The notes beneath the pieces are model-generated. The model saw only the letters and a list, made by a program, of their open reading frames with translations, made no database searches and had not been told where the DNA came from. Source: an uncultured bacterium (lineage in GTDB: Bacteria > Patescibacteriota > Patescibacteriia > Patescibacteriales > UBA12465). Taken from it: 64,000 nucleotides of DNA. Position 1 is the stretch's first letter, and each line of letters opens with the position of its first letter. Location: the NCBI GenBank assembly GCA_938003925.1, contig CALKWQ010000023.1, positions 18,885 to 82,884 on the forward strand, written 5' to 3'. Below are positions 2,181-58,778 of the stretch, piece after piece. Position numbers and translations under genes: made by a program.

Positions 2181-3014
2181 TTAAAAACCCAGACCTCTAT
2201 AATTAATTTTCTTATTATTAGCATAAAAAATAACTGAACCTTGCTCATCTGTACGCCACACTTTTATCCCCGCTACCCTCAAACTGTTAATAAGTTCGGG
2301 ATCGGGATGACCATAGGTATTATCAGCGCCAACGGAAATAACTACCACTGCCGGCTTGACTCGTGCTACAAAAGACGGATCATTAGAAGTATCTGCACCA
2401 TGATGCGAAGCTTTCAAAATCTGAGCCTGCCACAAAAAACCAGAAGACAACAGAGCAAGCTCTCTCCGTCTGTTGGCATCGCCAGCGGCGGCGAGGGATA
2501 AGCCGTCGCAATTAAAATGCAGAGCTAACGACCAATCATTTTCATCGTCTGTCTTTAAAAATTCGGCTGTGGGCGGAAAGATGCACAAACTACAAGCCGG
2601 TTCTAATTGCCAACAAGTTTCAGATTGAGGATAAATTATTGCTGTCCCCTGAGAACGTAGACCAGATAATAAGGTCTGGGCGGCGATGCCGGATAAACCG
2701 GAGGGCAGCAGGGCTTGTTTAATTTGATAACGAGTCACTAATTCTGGCAAAGCAGCCAGATGATCGCTGTGACCATGACTAATAATCAAAATATCTATTG
2801 TGCGCTTCCAGCCAAGCCAACGCCCCCAACCATATAAAGCTGATAAGTCTGGGCCGCCATCAACCGCTATTATTTTGCCTTGGGGCGTCTTAAGAGCAAA
2901 GGCATCTCCTTGCCCAACATCAAAAAAGACCACCTCTGCCCGTGAAACCACTGAAGAAGAAAAAAAATAAAGCGGTATAAATAAAAATAGTAGTATAAAA
3001 AATAAGCGATACAT
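2181..3014 (-). CDS. ComEC/Rec2-related metallo-beta-lactamase domain protein (stand-alone, signal/TM anchored)
   Basis: 277 aa. Hydrophobic N-terminus. VVFFDVGQGDAFAL..IIAVDGGP and ISHGHSDHLAALPEL (HxHxDH) match the C-terminal MBL domain of ComEC. Confidence 0.75.
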   Translation of the reverse strand: MYRLFFILLFLFIPLYFFSSSVVSRAEVVFFDVGQGDAFALKTPQGKIIAVDGGPDLSALYGWGRWLGWKRTIDILIISHGHSDHLAALPELVTRYQIKQALLPSGLSGIAAQTLLSGLRSQGTAIIYPQSETCWQLEPACSLCIFPPTAEFLKTDDENDWSLALHFNCDGLSLAAAGDANRRRELALLSSGFLWQAQILKASHHGADTSNDPSFVARVKPAVVVISVGADNTYGHPDPELINSLRVAGIKVWRTDEQGSVIFYANNKKINYRGLGF

Positions 3015-6619: not shown

Positions 6620-6800
6620 AAAAATGTCTGCTTATCACCCAACGGCTCAGCGGCCAGCTACTCTCAGCTCTATCCGCAGCCATAAATACTTGGTAATAAT
6701 TTCTTAAATATGTTATAATAGTAGCAAACCTAGCTTAATTTTTCAATAAAAAAAGAGCAAAGTTTTAGCTTTATTATATTAGCCAAATTAACACAATTTT

Positions 6801-7772
6801 ATGTTCTCTTATCGTCTCTTTGTCAAACAAGCCTGGCGCATCACTAAAAACTATCGCCATCTTTGGTTTTTCGGTATTTTTGCCGCTTTTACTGCTCTTG
6901 GAGGAGAATACCAAATTATTACCCAGGGAATGAATAATGAGCCCGGCGGTAGCTTAGTGAGTTCCAGCCTATTCATTATCTACAGCCTGTTCAATCCTAG
7001 TTTTTGGTCAGGAATAGCAGAAATTGCCGCCACAAACCCAGCCGCACTCTGGTCATTAATTAGCGTCTTGCTTTTAGTTTTAGCCTTGGCTGCAGTCATG
7101 GCTTATCTGGCAATTATTTCCCAAGCAGCGTTGGTAGAACAAAGTGCGCGTATCAGTCTAAGCAAAAAAAAGAAAGAAAATTTAAGTATTAGCGAAGGCT
7201 TAATTGAAGGAAGACGTCATTTTTGGAGAGTCCTAGCTTTAAATATCAGCAGTCATATTATTATCACCTTCAGTTTCACTCTCATAAGTTTGCCTTTGGC
7301 TCTACTCCTAATTACCGATACTGGCGCCTTAACACTGGCCTACACTCTATTATTCGTAGTTTTCGTGCCCGTCTCTTTAGCTATTGCTTTTATCATTAAA
7401 TATGCCATCGCAGCTCAGGTTTTAGAGGGCTTGAGTTTTGTCTCGGCTCTAACTAAAGGCTGGAAAATTTTTAATAAAAATTGGCTAGTTAGCCTAGAAA
7501 TGGCATTAATCTTGTTTATCATCAACTTTGCGGTTGGCATTGTAACTTTAGCCGCTATTTTCCTATTCTTCTTACCCTTATTAATTTTGTCATTGCAATT
7601 ATACGCCCCCGTGCTAACTGCAGTTAGCGTCATCCTGACTCTAATCGCGATGGTTGTGGCCGCCTCTATCTTAAACACTTTCCAGATTTCCGCCTGGACT
7701 AGTCTATATTTACACCTGCAAGAAAAAAAAGGCTTGAGCAAACTGGAAAGAATCTTCAAGCGCAAGCGTTAA
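6801..7772 (+). CDS. Polytopic membrane protein of unknown function
   Basis: 323 aa with at least 6 predicted hydrophobic helices. I recognise no catalytic motif. Confidence 0.45.
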   Translation: MFSYRLFVKQAWRITKNYRHLWFFGIFAAFTALGGEYQIITQGMNNEPGGSLVSSSLFIIYSLFNPSFWSGIAEIAATNPAALWSLISVLLLVLALAAVMAYLAIISQAALVEQSARISLSKKKKENLSISEGLIEGRRHFWRVLALNISSHIIITFSFTLISLPLALLLITDTGALTLAYTLLFVVFVPVSLAIAFIIKYAIAAQVLEGLSFVSALTKGWKIFNKNWLVSLEMALILFIINFAVGIVTLAAIFLFFLPLLILSLQLYAPVLTAVSVILTLIAMVVAASILNTFQISAWTSLYLHLQEKKGLSKLERIFKRKR

Positions 7773-7850: not shown

Positions 7851-10800
7851 ATGAGTGACGTAGCCTCAATTGAAAGTTTGATCAACCCAGAGTCAGCCGG
7901 AGATGAAGACAGTGTCCAGGGTAAATTTGCCAAAAAACAAACGGAAATCAAGCTCAAAGAAATTGAAAAGACCACTGAAAAGAGAGCCGGCGCTATCGGT
8001 CTACCTTATGTTAATCTTTTTTCCTTTCCTATCAGCCCAGAGGCGCTGTCACTAATCCCAGAAATACGAGCACGCGAGTTAAACGCTGTCTGTTTTTTTT
8101 ATGACGGCAAAAATGTACGTATAGCTTGTTTAGAACCAAATGAAGAAATCGCTGATGAAATTACTAGAATCAATGAACAATATTTTACTGACGCTAAATT
8201 ATATATTATTTCCCAAAATAGCTTAGAACAAGCTTTTGAGGCCTATAAAGCCATTCCTAAAATAAAAAAATATGATTCCGGCGTAGAGATAACGGAAGAG
8301 AATTTAGAGAAATTTAAACAAGATATTGCTAACTACAAAAGCCTCAACGATAAAATTAATGAAGTTAATGTCAGCGATATTGTCACGTTGATTCTGGCTA
8401 CAGCCATTAAGGTAGGATCTAGCGATATTCATATTGAAGCTGAAGAAAGTGGTGTTGTTATTCGTTTTCGTATCGATGGCGTTTTACAAGAAGCAGCAAC
8501 AGTAGACAGGGAAAAATGGAAAAAGATTGTTACTCGCATGAAAATATTGGCTAAAGTTAAGATTAATATTACCGGTAAACCGCAAGATGGCCGTTACACC
8601 ATTCATCTCAAAGATAGCAAAATTGATGTTCGTTCCTCCTTCCTGCCCACCGCTTTCGGTGAAAGTGTTGTAATGCGCCTTTTAAATTCTAAATCCGTAT
8701 CTTTAGAATTTGAAGGTTTAGGGATTAGGCCAGAGATATTAGAAACTCTGCGTCGTGAAATCCAAAAACCCAATGGCTTAGTCTTAACCACTGGTCCAAC
8801 TGGCTCAGGTAAAACAACTACTCTGTATGCCGTACTTAACAAGCTTAATTTACCAGGCACTAAAATTGTCACACTAGAAGATCCAATTGAATATCAGTTA
8901 GCAGGCATAAACCAGAGCCAAGTAGACGCTCATCGAGGCTACACTTTTTCCGACGGATTACGCTCAATTTTAAGACAAGACCCCAACATTATCATGGTTG
9001 GAGAAATTCGTGATTTAGAAACAGCTGAAATTGCCGTGCAGGCATCTCTGACTGGTCATTTGGTTTTATCTACCCTGCACACCAATGATGCGGCGGGAGT
9101 AATACCGCGTTTAATTGACATCGGCGTTAAACCATATTTCTTGGTACCGTCTATTAATGCTGTAATTGGCCAACGTCTAGTACGTAAACTTTGCCCACAC
9201 TGCCGAGTAGAACATCCATTAAATACTGATGAGATAGAAAAAGTGCAAAGAATTTTAGCGGTCATTTCGCCCAAGGCAAATATTAATATTCCTTCTAAGC
9301 TGCCGACCATGTACCGAGCAGGCGCTGGCTGCGAGCATTGTAATTTTATTGGTTATAAAGGGCGCTTAGGTATCTACGAAATCTTCACCATGGACGACAA
9401 CCTTAAACAACTAACTATTGACAAGGCCCCATCCTTTAAAATCTTGCAGCAAGCCATTGAAAACGGCATGATCACCATGTTGCAAGATGGAGTACTGAAA
9501 TGTCTTGAAGGCATCACTTCCCTAGAAGAAGTCTATCGTGTAATCGGTAATTTTGACTATGTAGACGAGCTGTATGATATTGTTATCTCCCAAACCATTG
9601 GTCGTGGTGTCAAAATTACAGCAGAAGAATATGGTCGCGCCCAAGCTATCATTACCAAAGTGGGGCAAGCTATTAATCTTAGTGACGTACCGTCTAAAGA
9701 ATTAATCAAGTTGATTATGAGTATGGCGAGCGCTAGCGATGCCGGGGATGTTCATATTGAACCGATTGAAAACGGCGTTAAGGTCCGCTTTCGCATTGAC
9801 GGTGTCATGCATGACATTTTAGATTTACCTAAAACTAGTTATTTGCCCATTTTGTCAGAAATGAAGATTTTGGCCGGCTTTGCCACTAATGTTAAAAGGG
9901 CGACTTTAGATGGACGCTTCAGTATTTATTTACCTGCCAGCAAAATAGACTGCCGCTTATCAATAATTTCCGGCGGCTACGGAGAAACTATCGTAGTGCG
10001 TCTGCTGTCCAATTCAGCCGCCTCTCTAGATTTAGAAAAACTTGGCATCACCTCGGTCGCCAAAAAAGCACTAGACCAAGCTATAACTAAAACTAAGGGT
10101 ATTATTATCACTACCGGTCCAACAGGGTCAGGTAAAACAACAACTCTTTACGGGATTTTAAACAAACTGAATAAATCCGATGTCAAAATTATCACTGTAG
10201 AAGACCCGATTGAATACCAACTACCGGGAGTCATGCAAACTCAGATAGATACCGAGCATGGCTATACTTTTGCCGCCGCCATGCGCTCCCTGCTACGCCA
10301 AAACCCTAATATCATGATGATTGGTGAAATTAGAGACGAAGAAACTGCTAAAATTGCGATTGAAGCAGCGCAAACCGGCCACTTAGTACTATCAACTATT
10401 CACGCCAACAGTGCAGCTGGAGCCATTTCTCGCTTCGCCGGTTTAGGAGTAGAAAAATCTTCTTTAGCCAACGCGATTGAATTCTCTATCGGGCAACGCC
10501 TAGCCCGTCGCATCTGTCCGCACTGCAAAACAATAGATACCCCTAGCGCCGAAGCTCTGCAGCGCGCCCAAGAAATACTTAATAGCATTAATAACAAAGA
10601 TATCAAAATTCCTAAAGAACTAAAATTCTATCGTGGTACCGGCTGTGACCAATGCAAGCAATTAGGATATAAAGGCCGCGTTGGTCTCTACGAAACTATC
10701 GCCACCAGTCAATCTATACAGAAACTAATACAACACGAAGACACTAATGATTATGATATCGAACAGGAGGCTATCAAAAATGGCACTGTTACTATTGCTC

Positions 10801-10865
10801 AAGATGGAATTTTAAAGGCTCTAGCTGGAGAGACTAGCTTAGAAGAAGTATTTCGTGTCATCTAA
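7851..10865 (+). CDS. Tandem-fused double GspE/PilB-type secretion/pilus assembly ATPase
   Basis: 1004 aa with two complete ATPase modules. Walker A is TGPTGSGKTTTLYAV and TGPTGSGKTTTLYGI. Asp/His boxes are VGEIRD..LSTLHTNDA and IGEIRD..LSTIHANSA. There are two tetra-Cys motifs (CPHC..CEHC and CPHC..CDQC). A T2SSE_N-like N-domain is present only at the extreme N-terminus. Confidence 0.85.
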   Translation: MSDVASIESLINPESAGDEDSVQGKFAKKQTEIKLKEIEKTTEKRAGAIGLPYVNLFSFPISPEALSLIPEIRARELNAVCFFYDGKNVRIACLEPNEEIADEITRINEQYFTDAKLYIISQNSLEQAFEAYKAIPKIKKYDSGVEITEENLEKFKQDIANYKSLNDKINEVNVSDIVTLILATAIKVGSSDIHIEAEESGVVIRFRIDGVLQEAATVDREKWKKIVTRMKILAKVKINITGKPQDGRYTIHLKDSKIDVRSSFLPTAFGESVVMRLLNSKSVSLEFEGLGIRPEILETLRREIQKPNGLVLTTGPTGSGKTTTLYAVLNKLNLPGTKIVTLEDPIEYQLAGINQSQVDAHRGYTFSDGLRSILRQDPNIIMVGEIRDLETAEIAVQASLTGHLVLSTLHTNDAAGVIPRLIDIGVKPYFLVPSINAVIGQRLVRKLCPHCRVEHPLNTDEIEKVQRILAVISPKANINIPSKLPTMYRAGAGCEHCNFIGYKGRLGIYEIFTMDDNLKQLTIDKAPSFKILQQAIENGMITMLQDGVLKCLEGITSLEEVYRVIGNFDYVDELYDIVISQTIGRGVKITAEEYGRAQAIITKVGQAINLSDVPSKELIKLIMSMASASDAGDVHIEPIENGVKVRFRIDGVMHDILDLPKTSYLPILSEMKILAGFATNVKRATLDGRFSIYLPASKIDCRLSIISGGYGETIVVRLLSNSAASLDLEKLGITSVAKKALDQAITKTKGIIITTGPTGSGKTTTLYGILNKLNKSDVKIITVEDPIEYQLPGVMQTQIDTEHGYTFAAAMRSLLRQNPNIMMIGEIRDEETAKIAIEAAQTGHLVLSTIHANSAAGAISRFAGLGVEKSSLANAIEFSIGQRLARRICPHCKTIDTPSAEALQRAQEILNSINNKDIKIPKELKFYRGTGCDQCKQLGYKGRVGLYETIATSQSIQKLIQHEDTNDYDIEQEAIKNGTVTIAQDGILKALAGETSLEEVFRVI

Positions 10866-10925: not shown

Positions 10926-11501
10926 ATGATTAATACCGGATTCGTCAGTAAACTTAAAACCGACTATCGCCAACGTGAACAAGAAAGAAGACAAATTATT
11001 AGTCGCTCCAATGATGTTCTCTTTCAGGCCAAGAAGACTATTTTTGCCCTCCAAAGAGAAGAATTAGAAAGCGCAGAAGAAAAGCTAATTAGTATGGAGA
11101 CTATCTTAAAAAAGATGGAAAAAGATTTTGGTCCCACTAGACTGCGTGAAGAAGGCGCTTATCACGCTGCGGCGGAAGAGTATGTAGAAGCAAAAACTTT
11201 AGCTGCGGTGGTTGCAGGCAAGAAGATAACTCCGATTAAGGGCTTACATCTAGGTTATGATAGCTACTTGGGTGGATTCTGTGATCTTATCGGAGAAATG
11301 GTACGCCTTGCCACCAACCGTGCCGCCAAAGGTAAATATGAGAGCGTGGCTGAAATGAAAGATAAGGCTGAAGAAATTATGAACAGTCTGTTAGATTTTG
11401 ATTTAACCGGATATCTCCGCACTAAATATGACCAGGCTCGCGGGCATTTGCGTAAACTAGAACAAATGGCCTATGAAATACGTTTACGCAAGGACAAATA
11501 A
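10926..11501 (+). CDS. Translin/TRAX-family (C3PO-like) protein
   Basis: 191 aa. HLGYDSYLGGFCDLIGEMVRLATN..GKY..LLDFDL..LRTKYD..LRKLEQMAYEI aligns by eye with the C-terminal half of translin/TRAX. AAEEYVEAKT resembles the TRAX catalytic EYVEA segment. Confidence 0.6.
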   Translation: MINTGFVSKLKTDYRQREQERRQIISRSNDVLFQAKKTIFALQREELESAEEKLISMETILKKMEKDFGPTRLREEGAYHAAAEEYVEAKTLAAVVAGKKITPIKGLHLGYDSYLGGFCDLIGEMVRLATNRAAKGKYESVAEMKDKAEEIMNSLLDFDLTGYLRTKYDQARGHLRKLEQMAYEIRLRKDK

Positions 11502-11504
11502 ACT

Positions 11505-11999
11505 ATGTTAATAGCTATTGCCTCCGATCTACATGATAACTTGGCCAATTGGGCAAGCTGCCACAAATATCTACAACAGCAGGGTGTCTCCACCCTGCTT
11601 TTCTGTGGTGATCTGACGAGCGTCAACACTTTAAAAAAAATTGTTCAGGAATTCTCTGGCGACATCTTTATGATTGCTGGCAATGCTGAATTATATACAA
11701 AGGCTGACACTGATAAAATGCCGCGTTTACATTTTCTTGGTCGCTACGGACAAACCACTATAGCCGACCAAAAAATTGGCCTTATCCACGAACCAGCCTA
11801 TAAACAAGCACTGCTCAGAGAACATCCTAATCTTAAATATCTCTTTTACGGTCATACTCACAAACCCTGGATTAGTAATGAAAATGGAATAATTTATGCC
11901 AATCCTGGAAATCTAGGTGGACTTATTTATCCGGCCAGTTTTGCCGTCTTAGATACTGATAATGATAAATTGGAACTAAAAATATTGAACACACTCTGA
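11505..11999 (+). CDS. YfcE/MJ0936-family metallophosphoesterase
   Basis: 164 aa. SDLHDN, GDL, GNAE and GHTH motifs occur in the calcineurin-like phosphoesterase order. The start is 4 nt after the translin-like stop. Confidence 0.75.
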   Translation: MLIAIASDLHDNLANWASCHKYLQQQGVSTLLFCGDLTSVNTLKKIVQEFSGDIFMIAGNAELYTKADTDKMPRLHFLGRYGQTTIADQKIGLIHEPAYKQALLREHPNLKYLFYGHTHKPWISNENGIIYANPGNLGGLIYPASFAVLDTDNDKLELKILNTL

Positions 12000-46780: not shown

Positions 46781-46959
46781 ACGAAGAAAAAAAACAATTT
46801 TACACTGCCCAAGAATTAGCCGAACTACTTGGCTTTAATATAATGACCATTTATCGATATATTAAATCTGGTAAGCTAAAAGCCTACAAATTTGGTAAAG
46901 ATTTTCGGATTGACAACGCCGAGTTTCAATCTTTCTTAAAAAAAGTAAAAATAAAGTAA
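46777..46959 (+). CDS. Excisionase-family (MerR-type HTH_17) DNA-binding protein, possible RM controller
   Basis: YTAQELAELLGFNIMTIYRYIKSGKLKAYKFGKDFRI matches the excisionase-type HTH pattern. The gene ends 1 nt before the RM gene. Confidence 0.6.
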   Translation: MNEEKKQFYTAQELAELLGFNIMTIYRYIKSGKLKAYKFGKDFRIDNAEFQSFLKKVKIK

Positions 46960-46960
46960 T

Positions 46961-48901
46961 ATGCCAAAAACAACTAAGAGCCTGACTCAAGAAATTTTAA
47001 TCAAGATTTTTAAAAATCCGGAGCAAGATCTTTTAATGTTTAACGACTTAAATAAAATTGATATTTACGAAAAGGATGAGGGTAAATTTTATATTAAGGC
47101 GATTTCTAAATCAGACGAAGAGAAGCTTGTATACAATACAAAAACCGGAAAATCCGCTCCGGAAGAAATCGTGAGACAGCTTTATCTCGTTCAATTAACA
47201 AAAAATTATAAGTATCCTAAAAATTTAATTGAACTTGAAAAACACGTTAATTTTGGAAGAGAAATAAAAAGAGCAGATATCGTCGTATATAGACCAGATG
47301 GAGTTACTCCAAAAATCATTATAGAAGTAAAAGCTCCAGGCGAAGAAAACGATGTTCAACAATTAAAATCATATTTAAACGCCGAGGGTGCGCCGGTTGG
47401 CGTTGCGGTAAATGGTAAAACAAGACTTATCCTATACCGTCCATACCCAAAAGATTTTGATGACACATTAGATGACATCCCTGCTTACGATGAGGAGGTT
47501 GAAGATGTTTTAGCAAAAAGAAAGACCTTAAATGATCTTAGAGAGGATGATCTCAAACAAACAATCCAAACACTTGAAGAATTAGTTTTAGCAAATTCAG
47601 GTCATGATAGTTTTGATGAAATTTTTAAACTTATTTACGCAAAACTTTACGATGAAAGAGAAGCTCTTTCTAGACCTAATGAGGAGCTTCACTTTAGAAA
47701 AAGTCCCACAGGAAAACCAGAGGAAACTAAACGTATAATTGATGAACTATTTGATGAAGCAAAAGCTGAGTGGTCTGATGTTTTTGAAAAAACAGATAAA
47801 ATAAAATTAAGCCCTGAACACTTATCAGTATGCGTTGGAGAGCTTCAGGACGTGCGTCTTTTTGGCTCAAATTTACGTATTATTGACGAAGCTTTCGAAT
47901 ATTTACTTCCAGATGTAGCTAAAGGCAAAAAAGGGCAATATTTCACACCACGTATTGTTATAGATATGTGCGTTCAAATGCTTAACCCACAAAAAAAAGA
48001 ATATGTTGTTGATACAGCCTGTGGAAGCGCTGGCTTCTTAGTCCATGCCATGCAATATGTTTGGAAAAATTTACCTACGGTCGAAGCACGAAAAGACTAC
48101 GCAAGCAGATATCTTTTCGGTATAGATTTTGATGAAAAATCAACAAAAATTAGTAGAGCTATTATGCTCATTGCTGGCGATGGAAAAAGCCACATCTACA
48201 AAACATCATCGCTTGATACTAGGGAGTGGTCAGATCGCTTTATAAGCGAGCTTAAAGAATTAAAGCTAGTTAAAGAATTTGATGACTTTGAAACAAATAG
48301 ACATAATCAAGAAACACTTCAACACCTTGACTTTGACGTTCTTCTTGCTAACCCTCCATTTGCAGGCGAAATAAAAGAAAAACATTTATTAGCTCAGTAT
48401 ACGCTTGGTAAAAACTCTAAGGGAAAAATGCAAAAAAAAGTAGAGAGACATTTACTATTTATAGAAAGAAATCTGGATTTTGTAAAAGCAGGTGGTCGGT
48501 TAGCTGTTGTTTTGCCACAAGGCATTTTCAATAACACAAGCGACGAATATGTTAGAAAACATATAATGGAAAAAGCTCGCATCCTTGCTGTTGTTGGGCT
48601 TCACGGCAACTCTTTTAAACCACACACTGGAACAAAAACCTCAATCATATTTCTACAAAAATGGACAGAGAATGAACTTGATAAAAGCGGTAGCCCAAAA
48701 GTTACCGACTATCCAATTTTCTTTGCAACTCAAAAAAAATCTTTTAAAGATAACAGCGGGAATTATGTCTTTCAAAAAGATAGCGACGGGCAGTTAATTA
48801 AAGATGAAGATAATAATCCGGAATATCTAAGTGATCTTGGAGAAATTGCTGAAGCTTTTGTATCCTGGGGAAAGGAGCAAAATTTAACCTTTTTAAAATA
48901 A
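46961..48901 (+). CDS. Fused PD-(D/E)xK (HSDR_N-like) nuclease domain + gamma-class N6-adenine DNA methyltransferase (BcgI-A / type IIB-IIG-like)
   Basis: The N-terminal RADIVVYRPDG..KIIIEVKAPG is a D...ExK pattern typical of the HSDR_N domain. Methyltransferase motif I is VVDTACGSAGFLV and motif IV is LANPPFAG. No separate HsdR gene is present. Confidence 0.75.
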   Translation: MPKTTKSLTQEILIKIFKNPEQDLLMFNDLNKIDIYEKDEGKFYIKAISKSDEEKLVYNTKTGKSAPEEIVRQLYLVQLTKNYKYPKNLIELEKHVNFGREIKRADIVVYRPDGVTPKIIIEVKAPGEENDVQQLKSYLNAEGAPVGVAVNGKTRLILYRPYPKDFDDTLDDIPAYDEEVEDVLAKRKTLNDLREDDLKQTIQTLEELVLANSGHDSFDEIFKLIYAKLYDEREALSRPNEELHFRKSPTGKPEETKRIIDELFDEAKAEWSDVFEKTDKIKLSPEHLSVCVGELQDVRLFGSNLRIIDEAFEYLLPDVAKGKKGQYFTPRIVIDMCVQMLNPQKKEYVVDTACGSAGFLVHAMQYVWKNLPTVEARKDYASRYLFGIDFDEKSTKISRAIMLIAGDGKSHIYKTSSLDTREWSDRFISELKELKLVKEFDDFETNRHNQETLQHLDFDVLLANPPFAGEIKEKHLLAQYTLGKNSKGKMQKKVERHLLFIERNLDFVKAGGRLAVVLPQGIFNNTSDEYVRKHIMEKARILAVVGLHGNSFKPHTGTKTSIIFLQKWTENELDKSGSPKVTDYPIFFATQKKSFKDNSGNYVFQKDSDGQLIKDEDNNPEYLSDLGEIAEAFVSWGKEQNLTFLK

Positions 48902-48902
48902 T

Positions 48903-50297
48903 ATGAACTGGCAAACAATAGCTCAAAATCATGATCTTAATATATCAACAATAAATCTTTCAGAAATTGAAGGCGCATTTAGACTTGATGCGGATTATTA
49001 CCAACAAAAATTCTACAACATTATAACTAAAATAAAATCAAAAAAATACGATACACTTTCTAATCTCGTAAGTAATAAAACTAAAAAATTTGATAAGAAA
49101 GAAAGTGGATATTTTAATTATTTAGAAATATCTAATATAAACACAACGACGGGGGGCTATAAATTTGAATTGCTTCCCATTGAAGAAGCTCCTTCAAGAG
49201 CACAAAAAAAACTAAACAAAAACGATGTTGTTATTTCGACAGTTCGACCAAACAGAAATGCAGTAGCAATAATTGAAGATGAAAAAGATAAAATGATTGC
49301 TTCTTCTGGTTTTTGCGTTTTAAAATCAAAAAATATAAATCCTTATTTTTTATTTACATTTTTTAAAACTAAACCAATTATAGATTTACTGATTAGAAAA
49401 ACCACAGCCACAATGTACCCAGCAGTTTCTGAGCAGGATATATTAAATCTGCCAATTCCATTGCCGAGTTCATTTTTTGAAAAAGAAATTGAAAAAATTA
49501 TAAAAAATGTAAAAGATTTTCAGGAAAAAGCCGAATTAGAATATCAAGAAGCGGAACAATCATTTATTAAAGAGATAAATCTCGATGGTTATATTACAAA
49601 AGACAATAATATTTCAATACGAAATCTCAAAGAATGCCTTAATGATAACCGTTTTGATGCCGAGTATTGGCAACCAAAATATGATGAAATAGAAAATAAA
49701 GTTTCTTTCATAAAACAAGAAAAACTTGAAGATATGGTGTCTATCAAGAAAGGTGTTGAAACCGGAAGCGAGGCTTACAGTGAAGAAGGTAATCTTTTTT
49801 TCAGAGTTTCTGATTTTTCAATTTATGGATTTGACGAGGGAGAAAAAAGGATATCGGAAGAATTATATGAGAAATTAAAGAAAAATTTTAAACCATTAAA
49901 AGAGGAGATACTTTTTACAAAAGATGGAACTATTGGCATCTCTTTCGCTCTGCATGAAGATGTTGATGCAATTATAAGCAGTGCCTTTTTAAGATTAAAG
50001 CCTAAGACAAAAATAAATAATGATTATCTCGCTCTAGCTTTAAATTCATCTTACTGTAAAGCTCAAATCGAGAGAATGTCTGGTGGCGCCATTATCGCAC
50101 ATCTTAAGCCGGATAATGTAATAAAAATAAAAATACCAATACTAACGGATGAAAAACAAGAGAATATTGCTCACAAAGTATCGAATGCTTTTCGGCTAAG
50201 AAACGAGGCAAAGAATATGCTTGAAAAGGCAAAAAAAACTGTTGAACTTTTTATTGAACAAGACGAGGAAGAAGCTTTAAAATACTTAAAATCGTAA
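48903..50297 (+). CDS. Restriction-modification specificity subunit (HsdS-like, two target-recognition domains)
   Basis: 464 aa with two TRD halves, each followed by conserved helices (DYYQQKF.. / DAEYWQPKY..) and STVRPNRNAV-type motifs. Starts 1 nt after the upstream stop. Confidence 0.8.
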   Translation: MNWQTIAQNHDLNISTINLSEIEGAFRLDADYYQQKFYNIITKIKSKKYDTLSNLVSNKTKKFDKKESGYFNYLEISNINTTTGGYKFELLPIEEAPSRAQKKLNKNDVVISTVRPNRNAVAIIEDEKDKMIASSGFCVLKSKNINPYFLFTFFKTKPIIDLLIRKTTATMYPAVSEQDILNLPIPLPSSFFEKEIEKIIKNVKDFQEKAELEYQEAEQSFIKEINLDGYITKDNNISIRNLKECLNDNRFDAEYWQPKYDEIENKVSFIKQEKLEDMVSIKKGVETGSEAYSEEGNLFFRVSDFSIYGFDEGEKRISEELYEKLKKNFKPLKEEILFTKDGTIGISFALHEDVDAIISSAFLRLKPKTKINNDYLALALNSSYCKAQIERMSGGAIIAHLKPDNVIKIKIPILTDEKQENIAHKVSNAFRLRNEAKNMLEKAKKTVELFIEQDEEEALKYLKS

Positions 50298-50333
50298 AAT
50301 GTTTAATTGCTCTAATAAAAATATTTACACAAT

Positions 50334-50359
50334 AAAAACAGGCGATTTTGCCTGTTTTT
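50334..50359 (+). terminator. Intrinsic terminator separating the two RM-like operons
   Basis: ACAGGC-GATTTT-GCCTGT plus T-run. Confidence 0.65.
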
Positions 50360-50528
50360 ATGTAACATTTTATATATCTATAAACATTACGATGCTTATT
50401 TTATATTAGTTTAACATATTATTTTTAATAAGAAGAGTAAACCCTTAAAAAATAAGGGGATGAGCTAACTATGGATCTTTATTTCTAGAAGTGCTATTAT
50501 TTAAGTAGATAAATTAAATTATAAATAT

Positions 50529-51827
50529 ATGGAAAAGCTACAAATAAATGCTGACCCAAGTAAAAAATTTTTTATTGAAATGTTGACAAGGGATATCAGT
50601 TTAATTGACTGTATTCTTGATTTAATCGACAACTCTGTTGATAGCATAATAAAAGCCGCAAAGTTTGACCCGATGAAAGGACTGTATGGTAAAGAAAAAC
50701 CATTAGATGCTTATAAAATATCTGTAAATTTTAACAAAACTACATTTTCTATTGTTGATAATTCAATCGGCATTACTAAGAGTGACGCTGAAAATAAAGT
50801 ATTTAGATTTGGGTCTAATCAAGAAGAAGGAAATGAAGCTGGTCTTAGTGTATATGGAATCGGAATGAAACGATCTTTCTTAAAAATAGGAAGAGAAATA
50901 AATTTTAAAACAAAAAATAAAAAAGAGACAATTGAAGTAGACATTGATGTGTTAAAATGGCTAAAAAGCGCCGACTGGGACTTCAGCGGAAAAGTTAATA
51001 CTTCAAGCGGTGCAACGGGGACGGTCATAAAAGTGTCAAATTTGTACGATAATATAATTTCTAATTTTAAAGATCAAACTTTTGAAAATAGATTATTAGA
51101 TAAAATAAATGAAGTTTATGGTATTTTTTTATTAAACAAGTTAAAAATTGAAGTAAACGGGAAAAAGGCTACTCCAGTAATTCCAAAAATTGCGGTTTCA
51201 GCTAAGATAAAACCATCCATTGACTCTTTTGATGTAAAAGGAGTGCATGTAAAAATTATAGCGGGATTAACCCATGAAGATTCGAAAAGCTTAAACGGTT
51301 GGTATGTGTTTTGTAATGGCAGACTTATTTTAAGTGGCGACAAGACAGATCGAACTGGATGGGGTGGTGCTAATTTAAGACAATTCCACTCTAGCGTAAA
51401 CCGTTTTGTTGGTTTCGCCTATTTTGAAAGCTCAAAAGTGTCATTACTACCATGGACAACAACTAAAGATGGAGTAAACTTTGACTCTGTTATTTATCAA
51501 TACGCATTAAACGAAATGGTAAAAACCGCTCAACCAATAGTTTCATATTTAACTAACTTATATAAAACAGATAAAAATCTTGAGGGTTTAAGAAGCGCTA
51601 TAAATATAAGCAATGAAACTCCGTTAAACGACATTAAGATAAACAAGCAATCTTTTTCAGCACCAAGCATTATTGAATCGAGAACAAAAGATGAAAGAGA
51701 AAAAATATCCTACACAGTATCTATTGAAGATATGAAAAAAATAAGAAAAATAATAGGAAACAACAAAATATCAAATACTAAAATAGGAGAAAAAACATTT
51801 TACTACTTTATTGAATACGAATCTTAA
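50529..51827 (+). CDS. GHKL-superfamily ATPase (HATPase_c_3 / MORC-MutL-like)
   Basis: N-box ILDLIDNSVDS, G1 box VDNSIGIT, G2 box GLSVYGIGMKRS, G3-like GTVIKVSNL, and a later GWYVFCNGRLI segment typical of prokaryotic MORC-like ATPases. Confidence 0.7.
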   Translation: MEKLQINADPSKKFFIEMLTRDISLIDCILDLIDNSVDSIIKAAKFDPMKGLYGKEKPLDAYKISVNFNKTTFSIVDNSIGITKSDAENKVFRFGSNQEEGNEAGLSVYGIGMKRSFLKIGREINFKTKNKKETIEVDIDVLKWLKSADWDFSGKVNTSSGATGTVIKVSNLYDNIISNFKDQTFENRLLDKINEVYGIFLLNKLKIEVNGKKATPVIPKIAVSAKIKPSIDSFDVKGVHVKIIAGLTHEDSKSLNGWYVFCNGRLILSGDKTDRTGWGGANLRQFHSSVNRFVGFAYFESSKVSLLPWTTTKDGVNFDSVIYQYALNEMVKTAQPIVSYLTNLYKTDKNLEGLRSAINISNETPLNDIKINKQSFSAPSIIESRTKDEREKISYTVSIEDMKKIRKIIGNNKISNTKIGEKTFYYFIEYES

Positions 51828-51831
51828 TTAT

Positions 51832-52815
51832 ATGAAAAGTAGAAAGCTAAATTATATAACAAGACCATCAAAGCATATCGAAAGAAAAATATTCGTAGAT
51901 GTTTTAAGATGTTTATCAAAAATTGGATATAATATCCCTAAATATCATTATGTAGGTTTTGGTAGTTATTATTACGCCGATTTTATTCTTTTTAATAGGC
52001 ACTTATCTATAACTGACATGACATGCTTAGAAAATGATAAAGATATAAAGAAAAGAATGGAATTTAATAAACCCTTCAAATTTATTGATTTAAAAATTGA
52101 AGATTGTGGGAAATTTATTACAAAAATTGATAAAAGTAAACGATATATTGTCTGGCTGGATTTTGAAAAAAAATTAAATAAAACAATTTTAGTAAATATA
52201 AAATCTTTAATTCACTCTTTAAAAGATGGGAGTTTATTTATTATTACTGTGAATGCTGATTCCAAAGAAATGTCCGGTTTAGAATTCGCTAACGAAGCAA
52301 TCTCTAGTGAATTTAACAAAAAACAAATTGACCTGCTATATCAAAAAAGTAGTGAGGAATTAAACCCCTTTTGTGGCGAAATCAAAAGAAATGATGTATC
52401 TCCAAAAAATCTTCCTAGTTTATACTCCAAAACTATAAAAAACGCCATTATAAACGCACTGATAGCCCGATCAGGGGAATCATCCTTCTATCAACTTTTT
52501 AATTACATTTACCAAGATGGCGCAAGAATGTTAACATTCGGCGGAATCATAGATAGTAATAATAAAGAAACGATAATAAATGAGTCACTGAGTGGTATAA
52601 AAAAATATATAAATTATGATGAAATACCTACAAAGATAGAATTACCGTCTTTAACGTTAAAAGAAAAAATATATTTAGATCAAAATATTGAAAAGAATGA
52701 CAAAATAAAAGGTGGCTTAAGCGGGCTACCCTTTGAGTTGAGTTCAGAGGAACTTCTCAACTATTTAAAATTTTCAAAACACTATCCTACTTTCTACGAA
52801 ACCATCATAAACTAA
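51832..52815 (+). CDS. Unknown 327-aa protein, translationally coupled partner of the GHKL ATPase
   Basis: Its ATG is 4 nt after the GHKL stop, and its stop is 1 nt before the MTase ATG. The alternating strand/helix pattern (YVGFGSYYYADF, CLENDKD, YIVWLDFE, LFIITVNAD) is weakly reminiscent of a Rossmann-like fold. No known motif recognised. Confidence 0.4.
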   Translation: MKSRKLNYITRPSKHIERKIFVDVLRCLSKIGYNIPKYHYVGFGSYYYADFILFNRHLSITDMTCLENDKDIKKRMEFNKPFKFIDLKIEDCGKFITKIDKSKRYIVWLDFEKKLNKTILVNIKSLIHSLKDGSLFIITVNADSKEMSGLEFANEAISSEFNKKQIDLLYQKSSEELNPFCGEIKRNDVSPKNLPSLYSKTIKNAIINALIARSGESSFYQLFNYIYQDGARMLTFGGIIDSNNKETIINESLSGIKKYINYDEIPTKIELPSLTLKEKIYLDQNIEKNDKIKGGLSGLPFELSSEELLNYLKFSKHYPTFYETIIN

Positions 52816-52816
52816 A

Positions 52817-53701
52817 ATGAAAGACAAAATTATATTAAAAAGCAAGGCAAAATATATTCTCTATGAGGGGGATTGTCTTAACTTAATAAAAAATATTCCT
52901 GACAATTCAATTGATCTTGTTGTTACATCGCCACCTTATTGTATGGGTAAGGAATATGATAAATCATGCGAAGTTGATTATTTTATAAATTTACATGAAA
53001 AAATATTTCCAGATGTTGTTAGAGTTTTGAAGCCTGGAGGTAGCTTGTGTTGGCAAATTGGTTATTATGTAAATAATGGTGATGTAATCCCACTGGATTA
53101 CCTAATTTATGATTTATTAAAAGAACAAAAAGAGTTGTTTCTAAAAAATAGAATTATATGGCATTATGGGCATGGCTTTCATAGCTCTAAAAGATTTAGT
53201 GGTAGACACGAGGTTGTGCTATGGTTTACTAAAGGAAAAGATTCATACAAGTTTAATCTCGATAATGTAAGGGTGCCTCAAAAATATCCCGGCAAAACTT
53301 ATTATAAGGGAAAAAGAAAAGGAGAATTTAGTGGTAATCCTTTAGGGAAAAACCCTGCTGATATATGGGAAATTCCAAATGTCAACGCAAACCACATGGA
53401 AAAAACTGAACACCCTTGTCAATTTCCAGTAGCTTTAATACAGAGGTTAGTGTTAGCACTTACTAACAAAGGTGATATCGTTTTAGACCCATTTATGGGC
53501 TCAGGGAGCGCTGGTATAGCGACTATTGTGGAAGGAAGAAGATTTATTGGATTCGATAATGATAAAAAATACTACAAGATAGCCAAAAAAAGATGTGAGG
53601 AATCAGTGGCTGGTAAAATTAAATTTAGAGCATATGATAAACCCATAATGGAGCCGAATCAGAAAATGGCAGTAGCCAGAAAGCCAGCATCATTTAAATA
53701 A
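52817..53701 (+). CDS. Beta-class N4-cytosine/N6-adenine DNA methyltransferase (N6_N4_Mtase family)
   Basis: Motif IV DLVVTSPPYC comes before motif I LDPFMGSGSAGIA..GFDND, which is the beta-class order. SPPY is more common in m4C enzymes. Confidence 0.85.
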   Translation: MKDKIILKSKAKYILYEGDCLNLIKNIPDNSIDLVVTSPPYCMGKEYDKSCEVDYFINLHEKIFPDVVRVLKPGGSLCWQIGYYVNNGDVIPLDYLIYDLLKEQKELFLKNRIIWHYGHGFHSSKRFSGRHEVVLWFTKGKDSYKFNLDNVRVPQKYPGKTYYKGKRKGEFSGNPLGKNPADIWEIPNVNANHMEKTEHPCQFPVALIQRLVLALTNKGDIVLDPFMGSGSAGIATIVEGRRFIGFDNDKKYYKIAKKRCEESVAGKIKFRAYDKPIMEPNQKMAVARKPASFK

Positions 53702-53702
53702 T

Positions 53703-53731
53703 AAAAAAAAGACGTTGACCACGTCTTTTTT
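53703..53731. terminator. Bidirectional terminator between convergent genes
   Basis: AGACGT-TGACC-ACGTCT flanked by an A-run and a T-run. Confidence 0.7.
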
Positions 53732-53753
53732 GAAAATATATAAATTAAAAACC

Positions 53754-54578
53754 TTATTTAATATCCACGCCTACTGGTGTTGCTTTTTTATTACCGCCAT
53801 CCTCTAAACAGTATAATATTTCATAGCTACTTCCGTCATTAGACTGATATGAATACAAAAAATTATACTTATTCAATGGATCCTTGGGTAAATTAGACAT
53901 ATAAACAACTCCAGAGTCTTTTGTGATTATCTTTGACAAATCTTCAATATTACTAGCTATCGGATACAAATTGTTATCATTGTAATAAAGCTCTAAGGCT
54001 GTTTGTAGTTGCTTAATGTCAGATATTCTCCTTGCATCTCGTGCTTTTTTTCTCGCTGAATTTAAAGCCACTGCGGACAAGGTTGATAATACAGCTGTTA
54101 TAAACACAACTGTAATAATAATTATATATAAAGGAACTGCCATTTTAGATAAGAACGGTATTGCATTATATAAAAACGCAAAAAGGTTAATAACAAGCAA
54201 CCAACTCATTAAAGACTGAAAATATTTAAAAGGACTCTTGAAGAGACGAAATCTATAATCATCAGAATTTGCTTTTAAAAATATTTGACTAATTTGATTT
54301 CGAACATCTTCATAATATTCGTATTGAATTGAAATTTTATTTAAAGAGAAATTTACTACATAGCCAAAAAGCAATAGCGGTAACAAAAGAAACCATGTCA
54401 TTAAGACGTTGGTGTTATTATAAATTTTGTAGTTAATTAGCGTTACTACGATGGTTGATATAGCGAATATAGTAGTAAAATAGAATTTGATTAAATCGAT
54501 TTGTATATCATTAAGTTTTTGCGACTTTAAATCACACTGCTTAAGCTCTTCTAGCAAATATGTCTTATATGCATCCAT
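53754..54578 (-). CDS. Polytopic membrane protein with a C-terminal type IV pilin/pseudopilin-like domain
   Basis: The N-terminal about 165 aa have 4-5 TM helices. Then ..LNSARKKARDARRISDIKQLQTALELYYNDNNLYP...PKDP..Y.Y...G..Y.L matches the post-helix region of CPR-type pilins. There is no prepilin G/FTLIE cleavage motif. Confidence 0.5.
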   Translation of the reverse strand: MDAYKTYLLEELKQCDLKSQKLNDIQIDLIKFYFTTIFAISTIVVTLINYKIYNNTNVLMTWFLLLPLLLFGYVVNFSLNKISIQYEYYEDVRNQISQIFLKANSDDYRFRLFKSPFKYFQSLMSWLLVINLFAFLYNAIPFLSKMAVPLYIIIITVVFITAVLSTLSAVALNSARKKARDARRISDIKQLQTALELYYNDNNLYPIASNIEDLSKIITKDSGVVYMSNLPKDPLNKYNFLYSYQSNDGSSYEILYCLEDGGNKKATPVGVDIK

Positions 54579-54686
54579 GGCTTTATATTTATTTATTGAA
54601 GTTTAATATAATAATATTACAACTTAAATAAGCGAAAATCAATTTATAATCTTAATACTTTTTAATTTTTATAACCCCGGTAATAA

Positions 54687-54715
54687 TTGGACTTTAATTC
54701 AAAAATATGATAAAT
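54687..54715 (+). promoter_or_regulatory. Promoter with extended -10 (TTGGAC-N17-TGATAAAT)
   Basis: TTGGAC at 54687-92, a 17-nt spacer ending in TG, then ATAAAT at 54710-15. Confidence 0.5.
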
Positions 54716-54722
54716 TTTCATT

Positions 54723-54868
54723 GACTACCTACAATTATTAGTAATAAAAGCACGAACAGACTGCTCAGTCTTTGCCGTTTTACGGACAGAAATGGGCAGT
54801 TGACCTCCGCAAAACGGTAGCTTCGTGCTATTGCTAATAGTGGGTAGTCTGGTTGACTGCCCTTTTTT
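54723..54868 (+). ncRNA. Candidate structured RNA of unknown class (about 145 nt) carried by the island
   Basis: The closing helix pairs 54723-54756 with 54822-54849. Internal hairpins are CCGTTTT..AAAACGG and AGACTG..CAGTCT. GGGCAGTTGACC (54794-54805) can pair with GGTTGACTGCCC (54851-54862). The RNA ends in T6. No ORF. Confidence 0.4.
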
Positions 54869-55247
54869 GTTTGCCTAATTAACAAATTCCTAGTCAATAG
54901 AGTCTTAAAAAGATGCGGAATATTGCGGATTTTAAAAATATCTTTTTTCTTTAAAACGGCAACTAAACTACCTATACTTAATTCAATAAAGCCAATATTT
55001 ACAAGGTTTTTATATAAGGATTGACCAACTTACGCAGAGAGGATTAGCCAAAACACAAAAATAAAAATCCGCATCCACAAAAAATCATTCTTATTCCAAC
55101 AAAAAGACAAGGCTCAACTATTTATTTTCTAAATATTAAAAGCTAGCTATTAGTGGAAACCTGGAGTATGATGCTGTTGAAAAAAATAATGAGCCACCAT
55201 AAACAATATTATGTATTTTAAATTATTAAAACGATAATTATAAATTT

Positions 55248-55667
55248 ATGCCAGAAAAGCGCCCAAATAACAAAATTAAGTGGATCGTTGGCTTAACCTT
55301 GTTTTTCATTTTTGTCATTATTATTTCCATGACAAGCGAAGGCACGCCATCAAAAGAAACGACACATAAAGAGATTAGTAATATGACCTCTTTGCAAAAA
55401 ATGACTATTGCCTTTGATGGCGGTTATTCGGAAAAAGAGATTAAAGACAAAATCACTGAAGCTATGGTTTTATATAACATGCCAATAACGGAAGAAGATT
55501 ACAGTCGCGCCGGCAGTGTATTGGTTGCACTAAAACAACAAGAAAAAATAGAAGAAATGCTTATTTTGGATTATATGATCAATAAATTATATACCCCAAA
55601 CATTAACCTAACCTTTCCTGGAGCCGCAGCTCTATCTGTTACGATTTTAAAAACCGGAGCCAATTAA
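55248..55667 (+). CDS. Hypothetical membrane-anchored protein
   Basis: 139 aa with a single N-terminal TM helix. No motif. Confidence 0.35.
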   Translation: MPEKRPNNKIKWIVGLTLFFIFVIIISMTSEGTPSKETTHKEISNMTSLQKMTIAFDGGYSEKEIKDKITEAMVLYNMPITEEDYSRAGSVLVALKQQEKIEEMLILDYMINKLYTPNINLTFPGAAALSVTILKTGAN

Positions 55668-55731
55668 AAACACCGTCTTCAACATTATCAAAAAAGTTGC
55701 TAAACTCTAACTAAGAGTTTATAGCAATTAT

Positions 55732-56421
55732 ATGAAAAAAATTGAAAAATTAAAATGGGACTTTTTTTGCGAACTAGATAAAGTTTCTAAGGAACATGAA
55801 AATAGAGCATTTAAAATCGGGCTATATAACAATCTGGATGATCCAAAAGATTTTAAATGTGATCTGATTGATAATTTGCATAGAAATGGTGCAATAGAAA
55901 TATTAGACGAATATTTTGGAAACGCTACACACAAGGGGAAGCCAGTAAACATTGCTAAAGGAGCTAATCTAAGAATGTTTGGCTATAAGCCGATTGAAAT
56001 GACTGTGAGGTTGAAATATGGACAGTTCAAAAGATTCTATGACGACCAACAGGACATAATTAAAACCAACGGGAAAACATTGGTGTCCTGTAAATATAAT
56101 GGCGACAAAGGCTCTGTACTAAACATAAGCGATACACATTTAAGGTTCAAGGGGAGAACGTCTATGATTTTGTATTATTTATATCAGGCAAGAAAAGCAG
56201 ACAATCTACAAACATACATCACATATAATGACTTTATAAAAACAGAACACCCTAACGATAAACACTATGTCGGCTCAATATTATTTGGGCAGGCAGTAGA
56301 AGATATAAATAAACGAGTAAAAAAAGAAGACGGTAACTATATAAATTCTGTTGTTGATATAATCCAAAACGGCAACCAATGTAATACATACAAATGGAAC
56401 CCTAAGATATTAAAAAAATAA
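55732..56421 (+). CDS. Hypothetical protein
   Basis: 229-aa ORF followed by a hairpin terminator (56451-56478). No motif. Confidence 0.35.
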   Translation: MKKIEKLKWDFFCELDKVSKEHENRAFKIGLYNNLDDPKDFKCDLIDNLHRNGAIEILDEYFGNATHKGKPVNIAKGANLRMFGYKPIEMTVRLKYGQFKRFYDDQQDIIKTNGKTLVSCKYNGDKGSVLNISDTHLRFKGRTSMILYYLYQARKADNLQTYITYNDFIKTEHPNDKHYVGSILFGQAVEDINKRVKKEDGNYINSVVDIIQNGNQCNTYKWNPKILKK

Positions 56422-56823
56422 CCAACTGGGTAGATGTTAATAAATCCCAACAAACTAGCTAAAAAGGCTAGTTTTTTGTTATTAAACATCTAGTTTATCA
56501 AAATATATAAAAGAGCGATAATATACTCACAGTCGTGCCCATAGCTACACGAGCGAAACAGAGCGACTATAAATAATTTGTGTGGAAACGTGAACAAGCG
56601 GATACCTGATCGACGTGGTTGCGATAACCATATTCATAACCCAGTATTTTTAAAACATTTCATTCTATCTCCTACTATATCTTCTTATAAATCTTCCACT
56701 ATAAGGATAAGGTCAAGGGTAAGGAAAACGATAGACTAGTAACCACAGAGACAGGACAACGCATTGGCAATTGGGGTTTAGTATGACAAAGGTATTACAA
56801 ATTTAAAATAATATAACAAAACT

Positions 56824-56988
56824 ATGCATGATAAACATTATCCGCTTGTTTCATACCGGCTGAGCGAAAAAACTATAAATAAAATTAAAATGCTCCACAA
56901 AGAAACTGGACTCACTTATAATCTACTTTTTGTGGAAATAATAAAAAGATACATAAGAAAAATAGCTCGTGATACCAAGAAATTGTAA
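56824..56988 (+). CDS. Possible small ribbon-helix-helix-like protein (54 aa, below the ORF-track cutoff)
   Basis: Hand translation gives MHDKHYPLVSYRLSEKTINKIKMLHKETGLTYNLLFVEIIKRYIRKIARDTKKL. The strand-helix-helix pattern (VSYRLSEKT / INKIKML / TYNLLFVEIIKRY) resembles CopG/Arc-type proteins. Confidence 0.3.
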   Translation: MHDKHYPLVSYRLSEKTINKIKMLHKETGLTYNLLFVEIIKRYIRKIARDTKKL

Positions 56989-57303
56989 TACAAAATTATA
57001 TCTACTGAACTCGGATTTACTCGGATTTTAAAAAAATTCCAAAAGACAAAAAATGGTCAAATATACTCATTGTTATTAGTAAAAAATGCCCATTTTTACT
57101 GCTTAATAACAGTTATCAACTTCAATAATGTATTACTGATAATTTAAAAAATAGAGTTCAAAATCCGAATACAGAAAAATATACAAAGTTACCCCTAACT
57201 TATCCCCTAAATAAACTGGATAATATACCTAAAAAGTAATAGAGTGGTGTTGTCCAAATGTGTCTTAGTGGGGCACATTCCGCACCGCTCTTTAACAAAT
57301 TAA

Positions 57304-57513: not shown

Positions 57514-57517
57514 CTTT

Positions 57518-58657: not shown

Positions 58658-58685
58658 AAACAGGTATTAACCTGTTTTTATATAA

Positions 58686-58762: not shown

Positions 58763-58778
58763 TATAATTAAGGGTTAG

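Follow-up and report, generated by a model that had tools for sequence, protein, structure and literature searches.

The window analysed here is the whole 64,000-nucleotide (64-kb) stretch of an uncultured Patescibacteria contig. Positions 7851-10865 hold an uninterrupted open reading frame (ORF) that encodes a 1004-residue ATPase of the PilB/GspE family with two motor modules in a single chain. The parts of this protein are listed below. The glutamate E395 named in the list belongs to the PilB of Geobacter metallireducens (GmPilB).

7851..10865, + strand: two-module PilB/GspE-family ATPase; ATG start, 1004 codons plus stop codon, uninterrupted
7998..8249, + strand: single N1 domain (T2SSE_N / MshEN-like), residues 50-133; Pfam PF05157, E 1.5e-8, single copy
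8280..9545, + strand: motor module 1, residues 144-565 (N2D ~144-290, CTD ~291-565); Pfam T2SSE at 174-563
8793..8816, + strand: module 1 Walker A GPTGSGKT, residues 315-322; motif scan
9000..9014, + strand: module 1 atypical Walker B GEIRD, residues 384-388; motif scan, E385 equivalent to GmPilB E395
9192..9341, + strand: module 1 tetracysteine zinc motif region, C448/C451/C494/C497; motif scan
9546..9605, + strand: inter-module linker, residues 566-585 (GNFDYVDELYDIVISQTIGR); from conservation, predicted helical by AlphaFold2 (AF2)
9606..10862, + strand: motor module 2, residues 586-1004 (N2D ~586-731, CTD ~732-1004); profile scores
10116..10139, + strand: module 2 Walker A GPTGSGKT, residues 756-763; motif scan
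10323..10337, + strand: module 2 atypical Walker B GEIRD, residues 825-829; motif scan, E826 equivalent to GmPilB E395
10515..10655, + strand: module 2 tetracysteine zinc motif region, C889/C892/C932/C935; motif scan

A first, sequence-only reading of this DNA had described two complete PilB/GspE modules in one polypeptide, with an N-terminal domain in the first half only. Both points were borne out. Pfam T2SSE (PF00437) matched the protein in two stretches (E 3.1e-234; 776.8 bits against a cut-off of 24.9), and residues 144-565 and 586-1004 are 46% identical over about 420 residues (E 6e-129), which is far above chance. The MshEN family matched only once in the whole protein, at residues 50-133. 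The MshEN motif for binding cyclic di-GMP, searched as RLGxx(L/V/I)(L/V/I)xxG(L/V/I)(L/V/I)xxxxLxxxLxxQ, was absent from the N1 domain with both a strict and a relaxed regular expression. Pfam matches to AAA families were only faint. The motif scan further placed the Asp box at residues 342 (module 1) and 783 (module 2), the His box at 408 and 849, and the CxxC pairs at 448/494 and 889/932, respectively.

The top NCBIfam models for the whole protein were GspE TIGR02533 (917) and PilB (888.7), each in two stretches. Scored separately, module 1 reached 503 bits with GspE, 486 with PilB and 183 with PilT; the corresponding values for module 2 were 427, 414 and 163. The whole protein exceeds the PilB/GspE equivalog cut-offs because the two module scores sum. 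Judged by these profiles, both modules are of the PilB/GspE type (the extension subfamily) and not of the PilT type. A PilB-PilT fusion was ruled out on the same scores and on the Cys4 motifs, which both modules carry. The protein is therefore a PilB-PilB concatenation.

It is extremely improbable that an assembly or frameshift artefact joined two adjacent pilB genes here. The frame runs continuously through the junction (nucleotides 9500-9680) with no stop, frameshift, homopolymer run or slippery sequence, and no segment of the protein is more conserved than the junction. Hundreds of independent assemblies (NCBI, JGI, ENA and Logan) contain the same fused ORF. In all retrieved loci (84/84), the ORF runs unbroken for 1004 codons or more and encodes two Walker A motifs. 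A stop or frameshift that would split the halves into two genes, which had been named as the result that would overturn the fusion, is refuted for practical purposes.

The best 120 clusters (90% identity), drawn from NCBI, JGI, ENA and Logan, are nearly all 1001-1007 residues long, with 100% query coverage and 71-98% identity; the two exceptions measure 932 residues (93% coverage) and 994 residues (98% coverage). Among GTDB contigs with one genome per species, 190 relatives were confirmed. The best 80 of these match over practically the full length (to residue 1004 in 77 of them), and many are labelled Falkowbacteria, Parcubacteria or Patescibacteria. The survey for fused forms was thus positive, both in the best 80 species genomes and in 49 of 51 metagenome loci; most of the carriers are Patescibacteria. 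Selection has maintained this ORF as a genuine gene, which encodes a concatenated motor ATPase of the PilB/GspE type, and a large Patescibacteria clade carries the gene as a rule in its fused form.

Beyond this clade, 1.84 billion representatives at 50% identity were searched. The top matches include 14 full-length two-module proteins (P0121-P0133 and P0135), of which P0121-P0133 are 40-64% identical to the window protein; single-module PilBs come next in the ranking. A profile built from the distant tandem forms found further two-module proteins in Moranbacteria and other lineages of the Parcubacteria group. The structure searches showed no tandem architecture among PDB chains. We found no description of a tandem, fused or duplicated PilB in the literature, subscription-only papers not covered. 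The caveat that the fused form might already be standard in the clade holds, since it is deposited as 'GspE/PulE family protein'; databases name the tandem clusters just so or 'PilB'. The tandem architecture has apparently never been described, though it is deposited under a generic name.

Some database titles in this set disagree with the contigs that bear them. The title 'uncultured Gammaproteobacteria bacterium' (TPA_asm metagenome-assembled genomes) stands on clearly Patescibacteria contigs (L001, L003, L006, L007 and many further GTDB loci), and these carry 64-88% identical orthologs in the same synteny. Other odd titles are Planctomycetota (L052) and Bacillota (P0035). Such titles are probably placeholders or were wrongly assigned.

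The linker (residues 566-585) has a mean consensus frequency of 0.89, compared with 0.66-0.84 elsewhere in the protein. AF2 predicted a helix at 569-584 with a low predicted local distance difference test (pLDDT) value, and the hydrophobic moment of this helix is ordinary (68th percentile). A homologous linker occurs in the Moranbacteria-type and other tandem families of 40-50% identity, with the pattern R-V-x-G-x-x-[DE]-[YF]-[LIV]-[ED]-x-[LI]-Y ... Q-[ST]-[LF]-x-R-[GA]. Conserved yet unpacked in the monomer model, the linker may serve as an interface once the complex is assembled.

The catalytic motifs and all eight cysteines were at least 98% conserved in both modules among 83 distinct orthologs, in line with the earlier claim that these motifs look intact in both halves. 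The exception is the Walker A residue S319 of module 1 (89%); the Walker A of module 2 is 98-100% conserved. The catalytic motifs of both modules are still invariant in tandem families of 40-47% identity. The mechanistically assigned residues were located by alignment to GmPilB, with residue roles as given by McCallum et al. (PMC5424180), and their conservation was read from an alignment of 38 orthologs. The equivalent positions are as follows.

N2D arginines, GmPilB R257/R271/R286: module 1 R248/R261/R276, module 2 R689/R702/R717; invariant in the 38 orthologs
Walker A Thr, GmPilB T327: module 1 T317, module 2 T758
Asp-box Glu binding Mg, GmPilB E357: module 1 E347, module 2 E788
Walker B Glu, GmPilB E395: module 1 E385, module 2 E826
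Pore Glu, GmPilB E400: module 1 E390, module 2 E831
His box, GmPilB T411/H413/H420: module 1 T401/H403/H410, module 2 T842/H844/H851
Inter-unit contact to the T411 backbone of the adjacent packing unit, GmPilB R455: module 1 R445, module 2 R886

All these residues are invariant or at least 90% conserved in both modules. According to McCallum et al., the N2D arginines complete the neighbouring nucleotide site in GmPilB, and E400 is listed among the pore residues that possibly contact PilC (PMC5424180). As far as conservation can tell, both modules keep all that is needed for ATP binding, hydrolysis and signalling to the neighbouring module.

The N1-N2D-CTD layout is common to the window protein, GmPilB (PDB 5TSG/5TSH/6OLJ) and Myxococcus PilB (3JC8). 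Geobacter PilB is 44-45% identical to each window module, and the residues with a role assigned in PMC5424180 are all kept in both. Foldseek aligned module 1 with Geobacter PilB chains at TM values of 0.87-0.92, and phmmer matched module 2 to Geobacter PilB with E ~1e-89 to 1e-91. Compared with a single-module PilB, the window protein has two N2D-CTD motors per chain on one N1, a conserved 20-residue linker (predicted to be helical) that single PilBs lack, module scores below the TIGR02538 cut-off, and a gene that lies outside a pilus cluster.

The PilF of Thermus thermophilus, an extension ATPase of the PilB family, has multiplied its regulatory GSPII domains at the N-terminus, with the motor left single. 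The motor core of PilF (PDB 6F8L, 5IT5, 5OIU) closely matches both window modules, and PilF likewise multiplies a domain within one chain; in the window protein, by contrast, the motor is duplicated and the N-terminal domain is single. GspE/EpsE/PulE belong to the same family as the window protein (top NCBIfam model TIGR02533). To our knowledge, a tandem architecture is unknown in GspE, and, in contrast to GspE systems, there is no gspF or gspL near the window gene. Patescibacteria are reported to be without the secretin PilQ, and a Gram-negative envelope is apparently absent (PMC6744442).

The fusion is no recent event: module 1 shares up to 55% identity with free single-module PilBs, compared with 46% with its own module 2. 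In the tandem relative P0121, the orthologous modules are 60-70% identical. These identities (46% between modules, 60-70% between orthologous modules and 55% to free PilBs) ruled out a recent tandem duplication in the window lineage. The sequence-only reading had set a recent duplication beside a fusion of paralogues; the recent event falls, and the original event may have been an in-place duplication or a fusion of paralogues. In neighbour-joining (NJ) trees (172 and 89 module sequences), the core module 2 was monophyletic in 29/100 bootstraps and a clan of modules 1 and 2 appeared in 0/100. Because the deep branches are star-like, we judged the origin by the shared linker and by leave-one-out hidden Markov models (HMMs). 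In 18 of 21 diverse tandem proteins, module 1 was assigned to the module 1 model and module 2 to the module 2 model. These assignments and the shared linker point to one old origin of the core tandem family. Free single PilBs resemble module 1 (+29 +/- 21 bits).

Concatenation has also occurred outside the core family. In P0128 (L088:10001-12985), P0129 and P0135, the two modules of the same protein are sisters with bootstrap values of 99/100, 100/100 and 100/100, respectively; only these three tandems show such sisterhood. Their linkers are short and unrelated to the core linker. The modules of P0129 are 70% identical to each other, and module 1 of P0135 is without a canonical Walker A. These three are independent lineage-specific tandem motor duplications. 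P0271 (L086:10001-14383; JGI 3300022698 Ga0248662_100121) goes further, with three complete PilB modules in 1460 residues. It has Walker A motifs at 314, 761 and 1211, three GEIRD motifs and three His boxes. Its modules are mutually 44-57% identical with core-type linkers between them, and its genomic context is that of its two-module relatives. The three-module form is represented by this single cluster on one contig.

Single-module forms lie close by. The closest relatives of module 1 are the single-module orphan PilBs of Patescibacteria (P0136, P0139, P0140 and P0143; 48-55% identity). These families share the neighbourhoods of the tandem genes, with either a membrane-protein gene upstream or a DHH gene upstream and a RuvB gene downstream. 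With their one motor module, they stop directly behind the CTD and show no linker remnant. The P0136 family (L090:10001-11752, L091:10001-11749; 583 residues) groups, in 63/100 bootstraps, with the first module of the window clade, ends exactly at the CTD and shares the upstream membrane-protein gene with that clade. These single-module forms may be secondary losses of module 2. The 'orphan' PilB-like ATPases of Patescibacteria, encoded outside pilus operons, thus have one, two or, once, three modules per chain.

The genes that flank the ATPase gene in the window are listed below.

6801..7772, + strand: 323-residue polytopic membrane protein with ~6-7 transmembrane segments; co-directional, directly upstream of the ATPase gene
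10926-11501, + strand: Translin-like gene; co-directional downstream, Translin Pfam match on orthologous genes
11505-11999, + strand: YfcE-type phosphoesterase; co-directional downstream, NCBIfam YfcE match

The top promoter-like site of the region (6690-6719) lies upstream of the membrane-protein gene, and a terminator-like site was found only beyond 11999. The Translin-like and YfcE genes probably share the transcription unit of the ATPase. The order of tRNA synthetases, a membrane protein of 323-326 residues, tandem ATPase, Translin-like protein and YfcE phosphoesterase is conserved in orthologous loci of the window clade. The window ATPase belongs to an 'orphan' PilB lineage set among housekeeping genes. 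The HMM scan found no other T2SSE-family ATPase in the window. As the sequence-only reading had stated, pilC, pilM and pilT do not flank the gene: none was seen by eye among the window ORFs or in the Pfam-annotated orthologous flanks. A scan of the window for prepilin signal motifs gave no match.

The membrane protein has ~6-7 hydrophobic segments and basic termini. It gave no significant Pfam or NCBIfam match, only a sub-threshold one to DUF7544. Despite rapid divergence (32-75% identity), a homolog of its gene stands directly upstream of the ATPase gene in all window-clade loci (84/84). When metagenome loci were retrieved with the membrane protein alone as the seed, the complete downstream ORF was of the PilB type in 51/51, and two-module in the 49 mentioned above. 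A homolog likewise stands in front of the ATPase gene in the P0136 and P0143 families, the closest relatives with a single module. Because the gene pair is conserved, the 323-residue protein is the foremost candidate to act at the membrane as the direct partner or anchor of the ATPase in the window clade.

A different neighbourhood surrounds the Moranbacteria-type tandems and other single-module relatives, with the order (TsaE) DHH, ATPase, RuvB (-YebC-RuvC). DHH, PilB-like ATPase and RuvB genes follow each other in L085 (8743-15114), L087, L088, L089, L171 and L173, often with TsaE/TsaD adjacent. No DHH or RuvB homolog was found in the window.

PilB-family ATPases are described as hexamers in which the N2D of one chain sits against the CTD of its neighbour and the nucleotide sites lie between the packing units (PMC5424180). 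In a two-module chain, one of these N2D-CTD contacts would be made in cis and one in trans. With one cis and one trans contact per chain, three chains would close into a ring of six sites that has only three N1 domains for anchoring and whose alternate sites are chemically non-equivalent. We favour, with moderate confidence, this arrangement of three tandem chains in one six-module ring; it corresponds to the trimer of dimers proposed in the sequence-only reading, which is plausible. Such a ring would work like the PilB hexamer, with ATP turnover travelling around it; its N2D/CTD packing units would push and turn the membrane platform, and pilin-like subunits would be polymerised. A single six-site ring is favoured because chains of one, two and three modules exist and because concatenation has arisen repeatedly and independently. 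The module counts one, two and three all divide six.

A six-module ring of three chains would also fit the published PulE6:PulF3 model, in which each Cyto domain of the platform pairs with one N2D and the platform protein, itself internally duplicated, reaches the N2 domains of two neighbouring ATPase subunits (PMC10790770). Adjacent ATPase subunits are non-equivalent in that model, and a covalent module pair would fix this permanently.

Several results weigh against a six-module ring that drives a pilus. The AF2 model of the full-length monomer shows good domains, but the inter-domain arrangement and the linker are of low confidence (predicted TM score, pTM, 0.47), and the CTD1-linker-N2D2 model was poor (pLDDT 55, pTM 0.41). 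This shortage of confident inter-module packing would also suit six chains arranged in two stacked hexameric rings, one of module 1 and one of module 2, with 12 ATPase sites. The tandem arrangement alone would permit such stacking, and the ~48 residues from CTD1 to the structured core of N2D2 (565 to ~613 in the AF2 model) are enough for other geometries. Stacked rings are known from tandem P-loop ATPases such as KaiC (CI-CII) and the type II AAA+ proteins (ClpB, p97, NSF), which have two nucleotide-binding modules per chain. The window protein is of another fold family, the PilT/VirB11-like secretion ATPases, and for it a single six-module ring seems likelier. As an analogy only, the paired or alternating homologous modules of KaiC, type II AAA+ proteins and F1 alpha3beta3 also give built-in site non-equivalence. 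No stacked PilB ring was found among the solved structures retrieved. The three-module variant and the short, unrelated linkers of the independent tandems better fit one divided six-site ring, and a tandem chain can satisfy the N2D-on-adjacent-CTD packing reported in PMC5424180 directly within one ring. We consider stacked rings quite improbable.

The two modules have not evolved alike. Module 2 evolves faster: its identity to orthologs is 69%, that of module 1 is 77%. Comparison of 129 single PilBs gave 72 near-invariant positions, of which module 1 keeps 68 and module 2 keeps 58; module 2 is thus relaxed at 14/72, mostly in the N2D (for example S632G, D687E and D818N). The modules are therefore possibly unequal in function. 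This would suit an asymmetric ring in which module 1 is the working motor, while module 2 is mainly regulatory or structural and binds nucleotide with slow hydrolysis, in analogy to the alpha/beta alternation of F1-ATPase. The resemblance of free single-module PilBs to module 1 points the same way. In addition, no full-length free-standing protein of the module 2 type was evident; four of the five clearly module 2-like 'singles' (P0137, P0138, P0197, P0258) were provisionally judged to be fragments of tandems by their length and match range. On the other side, module 2 conserves the Walker A Lys, the Asp-box Glu, the Walker B Glu, the His-box His/Thr, the N2D arginines and the pore Glu, and it does so across orthologs and families of about 40% identity. 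We consider such a division of roles unlikely.

Further doubts concern the pilus itself and the membrane partner. No PilC/GspF, PilM/N/O, pilin or PilT gene was found within 8-10 kb in ~15 annotated related loci, so it is homology that suggests a role in pilus assembly. Neither module reaches the equivalog cut-offs by itself (PilB TIGR02538, 675.65; GspE TIGR02533, 630.25). The Moranbacteria-type tandem loci do not have the membrane-protein pairing and show a DHH protein upstream instead. The ATPase might not be a pilus motor and might drive DNA uptake or processing, or some other export, together with the membrane protein or, elsewhere, in the DHH/ruvB neighbourhood. Such a role would agree with the position of the gene outside pilus operons in all loci examined, with the strict pairing with an uncharacterised polytopic membrane protein, with the recurrence of the DHH, PilB, RuvB(-YebC-RuvC) order in single and tandem relatives, and with module scores under the PilB and GspE cut-offs. 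We nevertheless regard it as unlikely. Both modules are nearest to bona fide PilB/GspE/PilF structures, and both keep the pore glutamate (GmPilB E400), for which PMC5424180 suggests a possible PilC contact. PilC, PilM/N/O and pilins are reported to be widely encoded elsewhere in genomes of the candidate phyla radiation (CPR; PMC6744442), so the motor could serve a pilus encoded in trans. Synteny in small, compact genomes may be historical and not functional.

A 274-residue ORF on the minus strand (53754-54578), with several hydrophobic segments, lies in a low-GC island of the window. Its C-terminal part gave a weak GspG pseudopilin match under the cut-off (E 2.4e-7), with a pilin-like stretch ARDARRISDIKQLQTALELYY; the prepilin cleavage motif is absent from it.

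A bolder version of the six-module ring can be proposed, although only tentatively and with doubt. The tandem ATPase and the co-encoded membrane protein may form a two-gene machine of Patescibacteria that had gone unrecognised, with an obligate (AB)3 ring of differentiated modules, non-PilC or one-to-one docking to a trimeric platform, and a C3-type drive. If this were true, filament assembly or the transport of DNA or another substrate would proceed by a C3-type mechanism, and not by C2 as proposed for PilB; the (AB)3 ring would be comparable to the alpha3beta3 rotary ATPases, and the series of one, two and three modules would show that selection acts on the ring and not on the single chain.

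Motors of the PilB family have a central part in pili, competence and secretion, and both their working symmetry (C2, C3 or C6) and the platform stoichiometry are debated (PMC5424180, PMC6858323, PMC10790770). In a natural concatenated motor whose two active sites have survived long divergence, the register of neighbouring sites is fixed and the number of N1 anchors is halved. Such a motor also makes module-specific mutation feasible, which is hard in a homohexamer. The tandem ATPase is, in this sense, a natural test of how six-part ring motors work, and the recurrent independent concatenations, with two modules and once with three, bear on the evolution of ring ATPases. Patescibacteria pili are thought to be central to host attachment and DNA uptake. 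The tandem ATPase, a conserved component encoded at a single locus, and its conserved putative membrane partner offer a concrete target in the few genetically tractable Patescibacteria.

Two other parts of the window deserve mention. The low-GC island spans 46900-58800 (GC 0.29-0.34, compared with ~0.40 elsewhere). By eye, it holds a DNA N6-methylase-like gene (46961-48901), a specificity-subunit-like gene (48903-50297), a second methylase-like gene (52817-53701) and a tyrosine integrase-like gene (57518-58657), which abuts tRNA-Val (58687-58762) and tRNA-Leu. The island has the look of an integrated mobile element with a restriction-modification system as cargo. On the minus strand, positions 2181-3014 encode a stand-alone protein of the metallo-beta-lactamase fold in conserved synteny; the orthologs in L081 and L083 match Pfam Lactamase_B. 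By eye, its sequence resembles the metallo-beta-lactamase domain that is fused to ComEC in other bacteria.

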